Shown here: piece after piece, positions 15,484-21,619 of the stretch
Layout of the letters: the number at the start of each line of letters is the position of its first letter
Position numbering within the stretch: position 1 is the stretch's first letter
DNA from: Nitrospirota bacterium
Lineage (GTDB): Bacteria > Nitrospirota > Nitrospiria > Nitrospirales > Nitrospiraceae
Direction: 5' to 3'
DNA length: 64,000 nucleotides
NCBI GenBank assembly: GCA_963703955.1
Contig: CAVPGK010000020.1
Span: forward strand, 1 to 64,000
Made by a program: the position numbers and the translations under genes
The notes under the pieces: model-generated
Database searches by the model: none
Told to the model about the DNA's origin: nothing
What the model saw: only the letters and a program-made list of their open reading frames with translations

Positions 15484-15839
15484 TGGCTCCCCGGGCAGGA
15501 CTCGAACCTGCGACCAATCGGTTACGAGTGTTCCCAGCATTTCTACTGGGCTCGGACTATCTCATCACCCGCCTGTCCTGCAGGGGAGGGTGTCGGGCGC
15601 TGGTGAGGCGTTATTGGGAAGGCTCCTCAGCCTCTAGTCTCTGCACGTTCCTGCCTACGCGTGGGCCCTTCGGCAGGCTTCGCTCAGGGTTACCATTCCG
15701 AAGCTCCAGAGATTCGGGGCAGGCTTCCCTGAATTCACCCGATGTTGCAACCACAGTTTCCTGTGGAAGCTGCAGTCCTGCGTGACTTTGTTGGTCACGC
15801 ATCTACAGCCGATCGCTCTACCAACTGAGCTACCGGGGA
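15484..15839 (-). tRNA. tRNA-Asn(GUU) interrupted by a group I intron at 35/36; exons 15839-15805 and 15524-15484
   Basis: Joined exons give a 76-nt tRNA: TCCCCGGTAGCTCAGTTGGTAGAGCGATCGGCTGT^TAACCGATTGGTCGCAGGTTCGAGTCCTGCCCGGGGAGCCA. Confidence 0.95.
15525..15804 (-). ncRNA. Group I self-splicing intron, 280 nt, no homing endonuclease ORF
   Basis: Follows exon U and ends in G; P1 GCUGU/GCAGC with U.G; P3 UCGGGUG/CGCCCGA; P4 UCAGGG/CCCUGA; P7 GAGACUA/UAGUCC; GAAA loops on P2 and P9. Confidence 0.93.
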
Positions 15840-15915
15840 ACGCTCTCATAAGCCGCGCGGATTCTAGCACAAGGTAAAGGCATCTGGAAGATTTCTTTTG
15901 AGAAAGACAGGACCG

Positions 15916-16278: not shown

Positions 16279-16557
16279 TCAGCCCTGATATGCCTGTCCG
16301 AGCGCCGCGGATTCCCCTTTATGCGTCATCAGCTTTCCGCTCGCGCTCACGGCTTGCATCTCGATGGCTTGGTGCTTGGCCGCGTTGCAGACAACCACGC
16401 AGAGCTCGCATCCCTTACACCGGTTAATGGTCACCTCGGCCACCATCTTGGTGATGTTCAGGTCCAGGCAATTGGCCTCCGGGCAATACATGATGCACAG
16501 GCGGCATCCCTTCTTGGCCACACACTTTTCTTCGATGACTTGCGCGACGTTATACAT
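16279..16557 (-). CDS. forE: 2-oxoacid:ferredoxin oxidoreductase ferredoxin-like subunit (epsilon)
   Basis: C...GCRLC..YCP and CKGCELC...C cluster motifs; last gene of the operon. For versus Por assignment rests on gene order. Confidence 0.75.
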   Translation of the reverse strand: MYNVAQVIEEKCVAKKGCRLCIMYCPEANCLDLNITKMVAEVTINRCKGCELCVVVCNAAKHQAIEMQAVSASGKLMTHKGESAALGQAYQG

Positions 16558-16578
16558 GCGTCTTCATGTCCTTGTTCG

Positions 16579-17283
16579 TTAGGCGGCAGCCATCGCCGCA
16601 ACTTTCAGTTCGACGTTATTCGTATCAGCCCATTCCGAGGCGATTTCATAGGCGCGCTTGACGGTCGCCAAGTTCTTCGCCAGGAGCATTTCCTTCTTGG
16701 CAAACTTCTTCTTGATCGCTTCATCCAGTGTGGCGGTTCCGCCTGATGCGACAAATTTCTTTCCGAACCGCTCTTGGAGCGCCAGGTCGAGAGCTTCCAT
16801 CGACACGCACTTCGTGATGCCGGCTACCGACCCGATCATGGTCATATTGGTGGACAACTCGGTTCCTGCGACCTCCAGCGCGATCTGCGTGCCCGCGATG
16901 TAAAAGATCGCCACATTGAGGTCATTGAGCCGTTCAATGTCCTCATCCGGCAGCAGAGGGACGTCCGAGTTGATGATGACCACTCCGCCTTCTTTGATAC
17001 CGGAATAGAACGGCATGGTATAGCTTTTCCCCATCGTGATGACCTGAGGGTGGAAGACCTCGATGACATCGGGGAATACCAATTCGCCTCGGTCATAGAT
17101 GCGTTCGATGCCGATGCGGCAATAACTTTCGGCAGGAGCCATTCGCTTTTCGGCTCCGAAGAACGGGTTCGAGATCGCAAACCTCCCGTCTTTCGAGGCG
17201 GCCATGGCCATGACGTGCGCAGCGGTCACCGCCCCCTGCCCCCCCAGGCCAGACATCCGGATATTTAGTCTCTTCTTGATCAT
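16579..17283 (-). CDS. forG: 2-oxoacid:ferredoxin oxidoreductase gamma subunit
   Basis: IRMSGLGGQG, PFFGAEKRMAP. Confidence 0.8.
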   Translation of the reverse strand: MIKKRLNIRMSGLGGQGAVTAAHVMAMAASKDGRFAISNPFFGAEKRMAPAESYCRIGIERIYDRGELVFPDVIEVFHPQVITMGKSYTMPFYSGIKEGGVVIINSDVPLLPDEDIERLNDLNVAIFYIAGTQIALEVAGTELSTNMTMIGSVAGITKCVSMEALDLALQERFGKKFVASGGTATLDEAIKKKFAKKEMLLAKNLATVKRAYEIASEWADTNNVELKVAAMAAA

Positions 17284-17322
17284 GGGTTATCCTCCGACTC
17301 GATTGAAACCGCTTCTGTCTGG

Positions 17323-18228
17323 TTACGCTTCCTGCGCGGTCAACTGCTTGGCTGCCGCTTTCTTTTCCTTTTCCTTCGCGGCCACCTCAGCCAAGAGTTG
17401 CTTGGCCGGCTCACTCACATACTCTTTATACGCAAACCGCTCAGTTGGTTTCTCCGAGTCACGCATTTCCTGCAATCCTTCCATGCTGTTCTTGCCGATC
17501 TCCAGGATGCAGGGTGTGTAGAGCTGGAGATACGTCGGCCCGATTTCACGAGCGATGAGCACGGCATTTCTGATCACCTTCTCGACCAGTGAAGGTTTGC
17601 TGACGGTGCAATTCACCACATAGTGACAACCGGATTCGCGGGCAATCTCTGGCAGCCGCACCTTCTCGAAGGTCTTACCGACGGGCGCCATCTTGGCGAC
17701 GAAGCCCTTCTGCATCAGTCCGCTCTCCTGGCCCCCTGTGTTGGCATATAGCTCGTTATCGAAGCAGATCGTGGTGAATTTCTCCTGACGGAACCAGGCC
17801 TGCAGTGTCATATCCAGCCCGATGTCCACGGTCGCGCCGTCGCCGGCCAGCACCACGACATCTTTGACGCGGCCAGGGAAGCGCACGGTGAGCGCGCGTT
17901 TCAGACCAGAGGCGATCGCGTTCTGGTTGCCGAAGAGCGAGTGGATGTTATGGACCCCGACGTGCGGGAACACCAAGCTGGTGCAGCCCGTCGATCCCAC
18001 CATGACCGTATCTTCCGGGTTCGGCAGCGAAGCAAGGATATAGCGGAATGCCATGGACTCTGGGCACCCGGCGCAGAGCGAGTGCTCCTCGATGAGCTCC
18101 TTGGAGCTTCCAATATCCTTCCAGCCCCGGTCTTCTTTGCCGTATGTCGCCCGCTTGACGAGATCCTGATACTCGGACGGCATGATATCGAAGAACTCCG
18201 GCGCGATCTTGATTCGCTCTTTGCTCAT
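17323..18228 (-). CDS. forB: 2-oxoacid:ferredoxin oxidoreductase beta (TPP-binding) subunit
   Basis: LCAGCPE, GSTGC, AGDG...DIG, DNELYANTGGQ, TPC. Confidence 0.85.
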   Translation of the reverse strand: MSKERIKIAPEFFDIMPSEYQDLVKRATYGKEDRGWKDIGSSKELIEEHSLCAGCPESMAFRYILASLPNPEDTVMVGSTGCTSLVFPHVGVHNIHSLFGNQNAIASGLKRALTVRFPGRVKDVVVLAGDGATVDIGLDMTLQAWFRQEKFTTICFDNELYANTGGQESGLMQKGFVAKMAPVGKTFEKVRLPEIARESGCHYVVNCTVSKPSLVEKVIRNAVLIAREIGPTYLQLYTPCILEIGKNSMEGLQEMRDSEKPTERFAYKEYVSEPAKQLLAEVAAKEKEKKAAAKQLTAQEA

Positions 18229-18311
18229 GGATGCCTCCTGTTAAAACACCTTTTCCCCTTAGTTAGAGAACCGATAGTCAGAGAACCGATCTTGTTCCGG
18301 CTCGACAGCGA

Positions 18312-19523
18312 TCAACTGCCACGACCAGCCAGTGAAACCGTTCGCATCCCCAAGGCCGTCTTGATTTCGGAGACGATAATCTCAGGAGGCATCGTCATCC
18401 CGCCGCAGACATGCGGCGCGGCAACGACACGGTCACTGTTTGGAATGCTCGCCCTAATTTCTTTGGCAAGCCATCCCGTCACGTTAAACTCCGGCACGAT
18501 GATGTGCTTGGCATTCTTGGTCGCTTCGCGGATTTCTCGCCCCGGCCAAGGACGCAAGGTCTTGATTTTCACGAGCCCGCATCGAATCCCTTCGTCCTCC
18601 AGCAGGCGGATCGCCTCACGGCCCTGCGATACGGCCGTTCCCGATGCCACGATGAGGACGTCAGCATCCGTGTTCTCGGTGTCGATAAGTCCATTCAACC
18701 AATTGATCGAATGCTTACGCGAACGCTCGATTGCGGCCCACACCTCCTGCTGCCAACTGGCATGGGTTGCGTAACTGATGTAGTTACTCTTCATCACAAA
18801 GGGATCCCGCATCATCCGGACCGGCGGACATTCCATATCCATGCACGGAACCGGTGACCGGTAGGGATCGTAAGGCGGCAAGCACATGTCCGCCGGAGTG
18901 AGCTGTACGACGTCTTTCGTGTGGGTCACGAAGAACCCGTCACAGCAAAGCGCCAGCGGCAGGTGGACATCGGGCTCTTCTGAGACGATGTAGCCCTTGA
19001 GAATCCAGTCATAAAAATCCTGCGCCGACTCGGCGTGCCAGACCAGCATGCCGGTATTGAGTAGGTAGGAGATTTCCAACGTGTCCGGCTGAATGGAGAG
19101 CGGCGAGTTGATACCGCGGCAGGTCACGATCACCTGGATCGGCAACCTGGCGCCGGCCCACATCGGGAAATTTTCCATGGCCCGCATTGTGCCGGGACCA
19201 GCCGTCGTGGTGAACACGCGGGCACCGCCGAACGCGGCGCCGGCACATTCAGACATCACAGCAAATTCACTCTCTCCACGGAAGTATTCCTTGACGTATC
19301 CTTCCGCAAACAGTTCCCCGATCAATGCGGCGGCCTCGCTCTGGGGTGTGATCGGATAGGCGATCATCACATCCACATTGGCCCTCCGGATGGCCTCCTT
19401 GATGACTTCACTGCCCGTGAAAAAGGATGGGCTGCGGGGAGCCTCATTGAGTAGATACCAAGGATCTGTGATCGCTTGCCCTTTGCTATTTTTGGTCCCG
19501 ATGATCGAGTGTGTATCCGCCAT
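18312..19523 (-). CDS. forA: 2-oxoacid:ferredoxin oxidoreductase alpha subunit
   Basis: AYPITPQSE, ESEFAVM, TTTAGPG, DGFFVTH. Confidence 0.85.
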   Translation of the reverse strand: MADTHSIIGTKNSKGQAITDPWYLLNEAPRSPSFFTGSEVIKEAIRRANVDVMIAYPITPQSEAAALIGELFAEGYVKEYFRGESEFAVMSECAGAAFGGARVFTTTAGPGTMRAMENFPMWAGARLPIQVIVTCRGINSPLSIQPDTLEISYLLNTGMLVWHAESAQDFYDWILKGYIVSEEPDVHLPLALCCDGFFVTHTKDVVQLTPADMCLPPYDPYRSPVPCMDMECPPVRMMRDPFVMKSNYISYATHASWQQEVWAAIERSRKHSINWLNGLIDTENTDADVLIVASGTAVSQGREAIRLLEDEGIRCGLVKIKTLRPWPGREIREATKNAKHIIVPEFNVTGWLAKEIRASIPNSDRVVAAPHVCGGMTMPPEIIVSEIKTALGMRTVSLAGRGS

Positions 19524-19574
19524 GGACCCAACCTCCTTTCACTTCTCACTTCGTTGTGCGGCGCGCCCAAACAA

Positions 19575-20240
19575 TCAGTTTGAGGCGGTGCTCTTGGCCG
19601 ATGTCAGCCTTGGTTGGACAGACCCTTTCAACTTACGTACCCATTCGGCGAGGCGCATGATCTTTTCGACGGATGCGTCACGGAAGGACAGCATGGCGTC
19701 CTCATGGCCGGCTTGGGCACACATGGCAACGGTATAGCAGGACGTTCCACCTCTGATGATCTTCAAGGACAAATTCGCTTGGTGGCAGTGGACTCCCACA
19801 AACATGCAACAATCTATCTTATTATGCCAGATCGTGAGATTCGGATGATTAGGATTGATCTCAATTTCGGGGTTGATCTTCGGATACTTGGGCCGGTAAT
19901 CCGGCATGGGAATCAACATCGCCTTTTGGGCTGGCGTCACACATTCTTTAATCGTTTCATAGAGATGCCGAATGGCCGTCGCTTTCTTTGCCGCTTTTTC
20001 ATTCCACGCCCAAAGGACCAGTGGACCGGGAAAGATGGTTGGGACCTTGGCCATCAAGAATTGGCGCGCAGCTTCTTCCATGGCCTGCTCTTCGGGAACT
20101 ATGACACCATGGATGTGCCCTTCACCCGGATTGGGCAATCGAATGCCCATGGAAGCGGCTGCTGGCGGTAAAAAGTGCTCGGGCCCCGGTAGTACACGAT
20201 ACTGGCTCATTCGAATTGACTCCTGAACCGTGTTAAGCAT
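19575..20240 (-). CDS. forD: Delta subunit of a five-subunit 2-oxoacid:ferredoxin oxidoreductase (start 20240 or 20210)
   Basis: First gene of a D-A-B-G-E order as in Hydrogenobacter forDABGE; PDYRPKYPKINPE.EINPNHPN, GVHCH. Confidence 0.7.
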   Translation of the reverse strand: MLNTVQESIRMSQYRVLPGPEHFLPPAAASMGIRLPNPGEGHIHGVIVPEEQAMEEAARQFLMAKVPTIFPGPLVLWAWNEKAAKKATAIRHLYETIKECVTPAQKAMLIPMPDYRPKYPKINPEIEINPNHPNLTIWHNKIDCCMFVGVHCHQANLSLKIIRGGTSCYTVAMCAQAGHEDAMLSFRDASVEKIMRLAEWVRKLKGSVQPRLTSAKSTASN

Positions 20241-20567: not shown

Positions 20568-20846
20568 ATGAAGCGACGGAAATGGGATGCCAGGACCAAG
20601 GCTACTATCGTGCTGGAAGCGCTCAAGGGTAAGCCAGTGGCGACCATCTGTCAGGACTACCAGATCAGTCAGGCTCAGTACTATCAATGGCGCGACCAGT
20701 TTCTCGCGCACGCCCCCAAGGCGTTTGACGTGGCCAAGCACACCGAGCGGGAAGCCCGGCTCCAGCACGAGAACATCCGGCTCAAGAAGCTGGTCGGCGA
20801 ACTCACCTTGGAGCTCAAAAAAAGCGACGAGGAGGTGTGGCCATGA
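20568..20846 (+). CDS. IS3-family transposase OrfA (HTH)
   Basis: KRRKW...KATIVLEAL...YYQWR plus coiled coil; A7G slippery site at 20817-20824. Confidence 0.9.
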   Translation: MKRRKWDARTKATIVLEALKGKPVATICQDYQISQAQYYQWRDQFLAHAPKAFDVAKHTEREARLQHENIRLKKLVGELTLELKKSDEEVWP

Positions 20847-21619
20847 ACCGCCGCCGGTCGCCAACCGTGGACCAGCGCAACGCGCCACTGGTGGCGCTGA
20901 TCCAGGCGCTGAAAGCCGAGCATCCGTTCTGGGGCTATCGGCGCATCTGGGCCCACCTGCGCTTCGCAGAGGAGCGGGTCGTCAACAAGAAGCGTGTTCT
21001 GCGGTTGATGCGGGAGCACGGCTTGGTGGTGAAGGGCAATCCCCGGCTGAAGGCCATGCGCACCCCGACGCGGAACAAGCCACGGCCGATCGCGCCGAAT
21101 CAGTGGTGGGGTATCGATATGACCAAGGTGATGGTCGAGCCGGTCGGCTGGATGTATCTGGTCGTGGTGCTGGACTGGTACACGAAGAAGATCGTCGGCC
21201 ACTATGCTGGCCTCCAGGCCAACACGCAGCATTGGTTGGCTGCGCTAGACCGAGCGGTGCAGCGCCAGTTCCCGCATGGGAGCCGCGACCACGGCCTGCA
21301 TCTGATGAGTGACAACGGGTGTCAGCCGACCTCGGTCGCCTTCATGAAGGCCTCGGCGACCCTCGGCATCACGCAGGCCTTCACCAGTTACAACAACCCG
21401 AAGGGGAACGCGGATACGGAACGCCTCATGCGAACGCTCAAAGAAGAATTGCTCTGGCTTCGGGAGTGGACCAGCCCGCTGGAGCTGGAACAGGCGTTTC
21501 CTGCCTGGATTGAGTGGTACAACACGCGGTACTTGCATTCAGCTCTTGGTTATCGAACACCGTGCCAGACCGAACAACAACAGCTCACCAGCCACAGCAC
21601 TCAGTTTGTGGGCGCTTGA
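20843..21619 (+). CDS. IS3-family transposase OrfB (DDE integrase core)
   Basis: GYRRI, W.IDMT, SDNG, N...ER...TLKEE, YN..YLHSALGY.TP; in the -1 frame relative to orfA. Confidence 0.92.
   Translation: MNRRRSPTVDQRNAPLVALIQALKAEHPFWGYRRIWAHLRFAEERVVNKKRVLRLMREHGLVVKGNPRLKAMRTPTRNKPRPIAPNQWWGIDMTKVMVEPVGWMYLVVVLDWYTKKIVGHYAGLQANTQHWLAALDRAVQRQFPHGSRDHGLHLMSDNGCQPTSVAFMKASATLGITQAFTSYNNPKGNADTERLMRTLKEELLWLREWTSPLELEQAFPAWIEWYNTRYLHSALGYRTPCQTEQQQLTSHSTQFVGA

Follow-up and report, generated by a model that had tools for sequence, protein, structure and literature searches.

Group I introns that interrupt tRNA-Asn and tRNA-Asp genes between positions 35 and 36, few of them with endonuclease genes, have reportedly been found in Patescibacteria. 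For bacteria in general, tRNA group I introns were extended from 4 to 21 classes or sites by Williams (2020, bioRxiv 10.1101/2020.01.27.920355), whose text, in the parts drawn on here, names the four classical classes and Leu.3Cg and states that introns longer than about 400 bp may hold protein genes. The tRNA-fMet intron of Synechocystis PCC 6803 is described as having its endonuclease ORF in P1 with an extension into P1/P2, which is termed 'core creep' (PMC3073962), and phage T4 SegB as a free-standing homing endonuclease of a phage tRNA cluster with its preferred cut in the tRNA-Asn gene (PMC2330249). A general model of homing, decay, loss and re-invasion is given together with P7.1 as a classifying feature of group I introns (PMC3984707), and a CCC:GGG receptor step with an asymmetric loop is described for subgroup IC3 (PMC2275092).

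The locus analysed here is a tRNA-Asn(GUU) gene of a Nitrospirota bacterium, split inside its anticodon by an intron and located in a window of 64,000 nucleotides (the whole stretch of DNA that was analysed; Table 1). Joining of the two exons by script gave a 76-nt molecule called as tRNA-Asn(GTT) by ARAGORN, and among 10 split points tried, a GTT loop was obtained only from the split after base 35, with U before the intron and G at its end. Of 9 intron-less tRNA-Asn loci retrieved, 6 have a gene identical to the exons. The coordinates, strand, lengths (35/280/41 nt) and insertion between U35 and U36 proposed in a preliminary description of this DNA are thus borne out by exon joining and the split-point test, and in the numbering of Williams (2020) the site is the fourth loop position of tRNA-Asn, with U(-1) and G(omega). 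The same description had recognised a group I intron, in agreement with the RF00028 search (76 bits, E 6.4e-19; gathering score 50), and had expected annotation to overlook the tRNA. ARAGORN in default mode does miss it, and the intron option recovers tRNA-Asn. Because default scans miss the gene and some homologues are wrongly labelled Thr under the intron option, Nitrospirota genomes can seem to be without tRNA-Asn. Folding of the precursor gave z = -4.0, equalled by 0 of 100 shuffles. Scans for promoters and terminators returned 0 and 0 sites; by eye, a hexamer resembling a -10 element (15861-15866, minus strand) is seen just upstream of the tRNA, with G+C-rich sequence after it, and the promoter scan made no call there.

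Table 1 Features of the split tRNA-Asn gene and its intron, in transcript order (window positions).
Feature	Position	Strand	Remarks
tRNA-Asn(GUU) 5' exon, bases 1-35	15805..15839	-	35 nt; last base U35, which forms the U.G splice pair
P1 5' strand (last five bases of 5' exon)	within 15805..15839	-	
Group I intron	15525..15804	-	280 nt, last base G; RF00028 76 bits
L1 hairpin; arms 15801-15794 and 15786-15779	15779..15801	-	Read by comparison as collapsed remnant of an HNH endonuclease cassette
P1 3' strand/internal guide GCAGC (15773-15769) and 2-bp P1 extension	15769..15775	-	
P2, GAAA tetraloop	15751..15766	-	Two-sided changes in 5/6 pairs; 100% paired
P3 5' strand (15742-15736); P4-P5-P5a (15733-15683); P6-P6a (15682-15646)	15646..15742	-	
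P7 5' strand with putative guanosine-binding site; partner 15559-15554	15635..15641	-	6/6 pairs invariant in 42 sequences
P7.1-type insertion	15605..15634	-	GAGGC/GCCUC stem, invariant GG/CC pair step, conserved asymmetric loop
P3 3' strand (15599-15593); P8	15566..15599	-	P8 with CCC:GGG step, then asymmetric loop
P9.0; P9 with GAAA tetraloop; omega-G (15525)	15525..15553	-	
tRNA-Asn 3' exon, bases 36-76	15484..15524	-	41 nt; G73 and encoded CCA

Rarity of the intron was not upheld, since it was matched in 34 of 401 genomes of the phylum, the host genome included. Among 100 relatives it was found in 20 (the 100 include two genomes flagged as unpublished, G006 and G052, neither being one of the 20), and its presence is patchy inside genera, at 2/35, 3/12, 2/4, 12/26 and 2/6 genomes. 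In total, 42 full copies including the query were recovered, leaving out one that is split over two contigs (G034) and second matches with no exon pair in G143 and G110. All 42 have GGCUGU before the intron, a terminal G and UAACC after it, so that site and boundaries are common to all. As a separate observation, loci from Fibrobacter and Mollicutes (L034, L035, L038-L040, L042, L045, L046, L052, L054-L058, L062, L065 and L070) have sequences resembling the 3' end of a group I intron, in a tRNA other than Asn.

Pairing statistics were taken from an alignment of the 42 Nitrospirota copies. The P2-P9 model is paired in 91.3% of cells, and 35 of its 68 pairs show two-sided changes; 0 of 500 shuffles scored as high, a test that kinship inflates, and slid controls reached at most 45%. 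The P1 helix GCUGU (exon)/GCAGC (guide) occurs in 42/42 copies, P3 and P7 are 100% paired, with two-sided changes in 2 of the 7 P3 pairs, and the P9.0 pair adjoining omega-G is G-C in 28 copies and A-U in 14. P5a (40% paired) and the outer P8 pairs (76% paired) fit poorly because their lengths vary, and inspection by eye did not reveal a P10 pairing between 3' exon and guide. The U.G splice pair and P2-P9 elements noted earlier are thereby confirmed across the alignment; by analogy with established group I structure, P7 would bind the guanosine.

A P7.1-like insertion had also been described, closed by a TGAGG/CCTCA pairing. An insertion between P7 and P3 does exist, but its stem is a different one: GAGGC/GCCTC shows a two-sided change in 4 of 5 pairs and is paired in 97.6% of cells, while TGAGG/CCTCA, with two-sided changes in 0 of 5 pairs and matched by 500 of 500 shuffles, was rejected. 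With respect to subgroup, the intron has the CCC:GGG receptor with asymmetric loop, whose placement in P8 is our assumption, and GNRA loops on P2 and P9, as in IC3; whereas IC3 introns are not known to have a P7.1 insertion, a covarying P7.1 stem is present here. A P7.1 insertion between P7 and P3 is a feature of IA introns. The core thus looks, from its predicted fold, IC3-like while carrying P7.1, a modest structural variant. A related intron in locus L073 is without P7.1. Other tRNA-Asn introns with the same HNH gene (L297, L301, L302, L304, L306-L309, L315 and L321-L328) have P7-P3 insertions that differ or are absent, so the domain varies within the class. The conserved asymmetric loop in P7.1 resembles a kink-turn-like motif.

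L1 measures at least 300 nt in 9 of the 42 copies, 70-213 nt in 7, 26-38 nt in 13 (the class of the query) and at most 14 nt in 13. A full-size HNH gene lies in L1 of 9/42 introns. The ORF of the relatives matches the HNH family phrog_2255 at E 1e-27 to 1e-31, and scores 16.8, 20.4 and 10.6 bits against Pfam HNH, below the cut-off of 21.4; a search of solved structures with the HNH protein gave nothing below E 0.09. Of the nine ORFs in long L1 loops, six are open and keep the conserved motifs, a seventh is open but has two changes in the motifs, and the remaining two are interrupted, by a stop in one case and a frameshift in the other. C37, C40, H52, H53, C86, N88, C89, H90 and H94, which comprise the HNH His/Asn residues and zinc-type Cys pairs, are kept in at least 52 of 54 homologues. 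In relatives, the HNH frame enters the ribozyme core by 57-165 nt. For six open ORFs (G110, missed by the frame rule used, was left out), dN/dS was 0.06-0.08 in the 3 of 15 pairs with finite dS, dS being saturated in the other 12.

Homologues were collected from metagenomes and viruses. Of the best 80 of 183 metagenome matches, 66 lie between both tRNA-Asn exons, 9 have one exon and 5 neither; three of these five sit just downstream of a tRNA-Asn gene with an ORF-less intron (L341, L344 and L347). Among the best 80 of 147 viral matches (20 of these 80 were run against Rfam), one is inside a tRNA-Asn intron (L073). The other 79 are free-standing, with tRNA genes within 1.5 kb in 76 and tRNA-Asn as a nearest tRNA in 55; after clustering of the viral set at 70% identity, tRNA-Asn is a nearest tRNA in 8 of 17 representatives, and Asn accounts for 9 of 28 flanking tRNAs and 0 of 73 other tRNAs (Fisher p 3e-6, overstated by kinship). 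Five of 457 matching annotated phage records were inspected; all have the gene in a tRNA cluster, and tRNA-Asn adjoins it in three. A single branch with support 87 separates the 35 metagenome rows from the 19 viral rows in the HNH tree, from which, as it is unrooted, we claim no direction of transfer. Locus L073 also holds, beside its HNH-bearing tRNA-Asn intron, a small GIY-YIG-like ORF (478-819) that follows a duplicate of the tRNA 5' end; at the tRNA 3' end is a serine-recombinase-like gene (1416-2705).

This genomic context points to tRNA-Asn DNA as the target that the phrog_2255 HNH protein would cleave, and our literature searches found no paper on phrog_2255 as a tRNA-Asn homing nuclease. 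Tentatively, and with not quite even confidence, we propose that phrog_2255, a minimal HNH protein of about 95 residues, may be an uncharacterised tRNA-Asn homing nuclease present at every stage of the life cycle of a mobile intron. The stages would be a free-standing gene in phage tRNA clusters, a gene beside an ORF-less intron, a gene in L1 creeping into the core, and a decayed hairpin. If true, phrog_2255 would keep the intron cycling through the sole tRNA-Asn gene of nitrifiers. At a single site, the family provides a natural gradation from endonuclease gain through overlap of its gene with the ribozyme core to its loss, and a very small nuclease with a predicted target.

The history of the intron was examined on an RpoB tree of 60 chosen genomes, 38 with and 22 without the intron, where for some of the 22 'without' means that there was no intron-level match. 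Intron state changes 15 times on this tree, compared with a shuffled mean of 17.8, and 22 of 200 shuffles were as low. The intron tree broadly tracks host families, and intron and host distances are correlated (Mantel rho 0.76, 0/999 permutations, 37 genomes), so the patchy pattern could be due to loss alone. Together with the absence of a full-size HNH gene from 33/42 copies, this agreement is what would be expected if the intron were ancient and only vertically inherited, with the HNH gene a passenger or kept for another job, for example as a splicing helper, and with no ongoing homing. We regard that account as unlikely, because the HNH gene is under strong purifying selection with saturated synonymous sites, its Cys and His motifs are nearly invariant in the 54 homologues, free-standing phage homologues adjoin tRNA-Asn genes where no intron needs help, and 13/42 introns persist after losing all of L1. 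From its distribution, the intron is old in the phylum and has been lost repeatedly, and re-invasion among near kin is possible. A search of the intron against annotated phages gave one weak match (E 0.02).

The L1 hairpin of the query connects it to the endonuclease-bearing introns. This extra hairpin in the P1 loop, already noted in the preliminary description, is real by the measure of its folding energy (-12.1 kcal/mol, z -4.25, 0/300 shuffles), and hairpins in 10 of the 13 members of the 26-38 nt L1 class are stable beyond shuffles; since 13 introns are without it, splicing does not need the hairpin. Its 5' arm corresponds to the leader of the HNH cassette and its 3' arm to the ORF codons that surround the final conserved His. 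Among introns that bear the endonuclease gene, L285-L290 are closest to the query (92% core identity); their HNH cassettes open with the same 9 bases as the 5' arm, the ORF region closes with the 3' arm, and the two ends pair there too. In a local alignment of the hairpin with more distant HNH cassettes, the match did not stand clearly above interior windows, the 3' end scoring higher in 4/9. The 9-nt hairpin loop agrees at 8/9 bases with a segment from inside the HNH gene, a likeness to which we attach no weight (rough chance estimate about 0.03). Judged by these comparisons, the L1 hairpin is a leftover of the HNH gene that close relatives still carry; the query has no intact endonuclease ORF, only the two gene ends remaining, and no HNH homologue was found elsewhere in the host genome with the HNH query used. 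The leftover frame is open at 15611-15802 (minus strand), running for 63 codons from an ATG at the start of the intron across the core and ending at a stop within the P7.1 loop; it encodes no nuclease domain.

The preliminary description had found no endonuclease ORF, from which it derived that any spread would use reverse splicing or an endonuclease provided in trans. No ORF body is indeed present in the query, but the intron is not primitively ORF-less, given the full-size HNH genes in L1 of its relatives, and the proposed routes of spread are not supported, as relatives have the HNH gene inside the intron and the query hairpin is its remnant. Free-standing HNH genes beside the three ORF-less introns mentioned above make homing in trans possible in the family. 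A primitively ORF-less intron that spreads by one of these two routes is nonetheless highly improbable for the query, its ORF-less origin being largely refuted by the match of the L285-L290 cassette ends to the hairpin arms.

The preliminary description also reasoned that asparagine decoding would depend on splicing if the split gene were the only tRNA-Asn. The host is treated as Nitrospiraceae-like, because one protein encoded in the window groups, at 90% clustering, with proteins labelled Nitrospira sp. or Nitrospirales. Its genome (28 contigs, 82% complete) gave no second tRNA-Asn with ARAGORN and blastn. Other tRNAs, such as Asp, are missing from it as well, so this genome alone cannot establish uniqueness. 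In 12/12 single-contig intron-bearing relatives, no other tRNA-Asn was found: the intron-less allele used as query was matched only as two split halves, and the best full-length match in each (78-83%) is a tRNA-Arg. Further ARAGORN intron-mode calls in the host genome, including an Asn call on contig C16, had no exon similarity and no RF00028 match and were discarded; ARAGORN at low threshold gave noise only. The split gene is thus probably the sole tRNA-Asn of the cell, as the earlier reasoning supposed, and the 12 single-contig relatives appear to need splicing by the ribozyme in order to decode asparagine.

Expression was assessed from four metatranscriptome runs, all of one study and available as contigs only. 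Contigs identical to the window cover the split gene and leave its flanks almost bare, and one ends exactly at omega-G (15525). Because contigs cannot reveal RNA ends or levels, this is weak evidence of expression, and the contig end is only a hint. No spliced junction was seen in these four contig-only runs, the joints listed belonging to other tRNAs. The incompleteness of the host genome and its missing tRNAs would leave room for a dead split gene and an intact tRNA-Asn in the unassembled part; we consider this scarcely credible, as the exons are perfect, the catalytic core is intact, the closed relatives have no second copy and coverage in the metatranscriptomes is transcript-like. A negligible chance attaches to splicing at an earlier position to give tRNA-Thr(CGU), a reading prompted by the CTCGTAA loop that the intron end and second exon form at split points 30-33 and by the Thr label that ARAGORN gives several homologues, and rejected because the terminal G is absent at those split points, P1 and P9.0 set the sites at 35/36, and the exons equal intron-less tRNA-Asn genes.

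Taken together, the locus is very probably a group I ribozyme, compact and functional, in the probable sole tRNA-Asn gene of the cell, at the endonuclease-lost stage of a homing intron. Sequence data and comparison establish the splice sites, the fold, the uniqueness of the gene in closed relatives and the loss of the HNH gene. In the proposed pathway, the guide GCAGC would pair after transcription with exon bases 31-35 to form P1 with its U35.G pair. As in known group I introns, free guanosine bound in P7 would cut after U35; omega-G, held by P9.0, would then take the site, and U35 would be joined to U36, completing the GUU anticodon. As the comparison with relatives shows, L1 of the ancestor contained an HNH gene of about 95 codons, with the leader and the ORF end paired as a closing stem, and deletion of the ORF body left this stem as the hairpin. 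The HNH protein most likely cuts intron-less tRNA-Asn near the anticodon, which would allow the intron to re-invade after precise loss, in a cycle of homing into intron-less alleles, decay, loss and re-invasion.

Several further features of the window and genome were recorded. Upstream of the tRNA, a 2-oxoacid:ferredoxin oxidoreductase gene cluster, named after members of the matching protein clusters, occupies 16279-20240 (minus strand), and two overlapping ORFs at 20568-21619 (plus strand) presumably represent an IS3-family transposase pair. The 23S rRNA gene of the host genome has a 611-nt insert (G000:C18:100703-101313; L002 about 1509-2119) with two tandem group I-like cores (RF00028 42.9 and 15.8 bits); between the cores lies a degenerate repeat of the sequence that begins the downstream exon. 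G001 instead has two distinct introns, and a true exon lies between those. The tandem-core insert is possibly a twintron, a chimera or a mis-assembly. In nearly all Nitrospirales loci checked (L183:2480-3415 on G000:C26, L206-L262 and L264), two genes, which we take to be rplJ (L10) and rplL (L7/L12), form one open frame with no stop between them and a Met at the junction.

The introns said to occur in Patescibacteria share host tRNA and site with the query, and differ in phylum. In the parts of the published sources used here, the introns of Williams (2020) resemble the query in being anticodon-loop group I introns with U at -1 and G at omega, the query site being position 4 there. The Azoarcus pre-tRNA-Ile intron (PMC13168695) and other IC3 tRNA introns likewise have a compact P2-P9 core with P9.0 and lie in an anticodon loop, and IC3 tRNA introns share with the query GNRA loops on P2 and P9 and a CCC:GGG step in P8 (PMC2275092). 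Azoarcus differs in tRNA and site and in length (205 nt, compared with 280 nt), the P7.1-type domain and L1 hairpin being the extras of the query. The Synechocystis tRNA-fMet enzyme is of the PD-(D/E)XK type (PMC3073962), whereas the query family is HNH, has crept 57-165 nt into the core in relatives and is lost in the query. T4 SegB is a GIY-YIG enzyme that is not linked to an intron (PMC2330249), in contrast to the HNH family of phrog_2255. The locus is therefore a tRNA group I intron of an already known kind, and the kind of system is unchanged.
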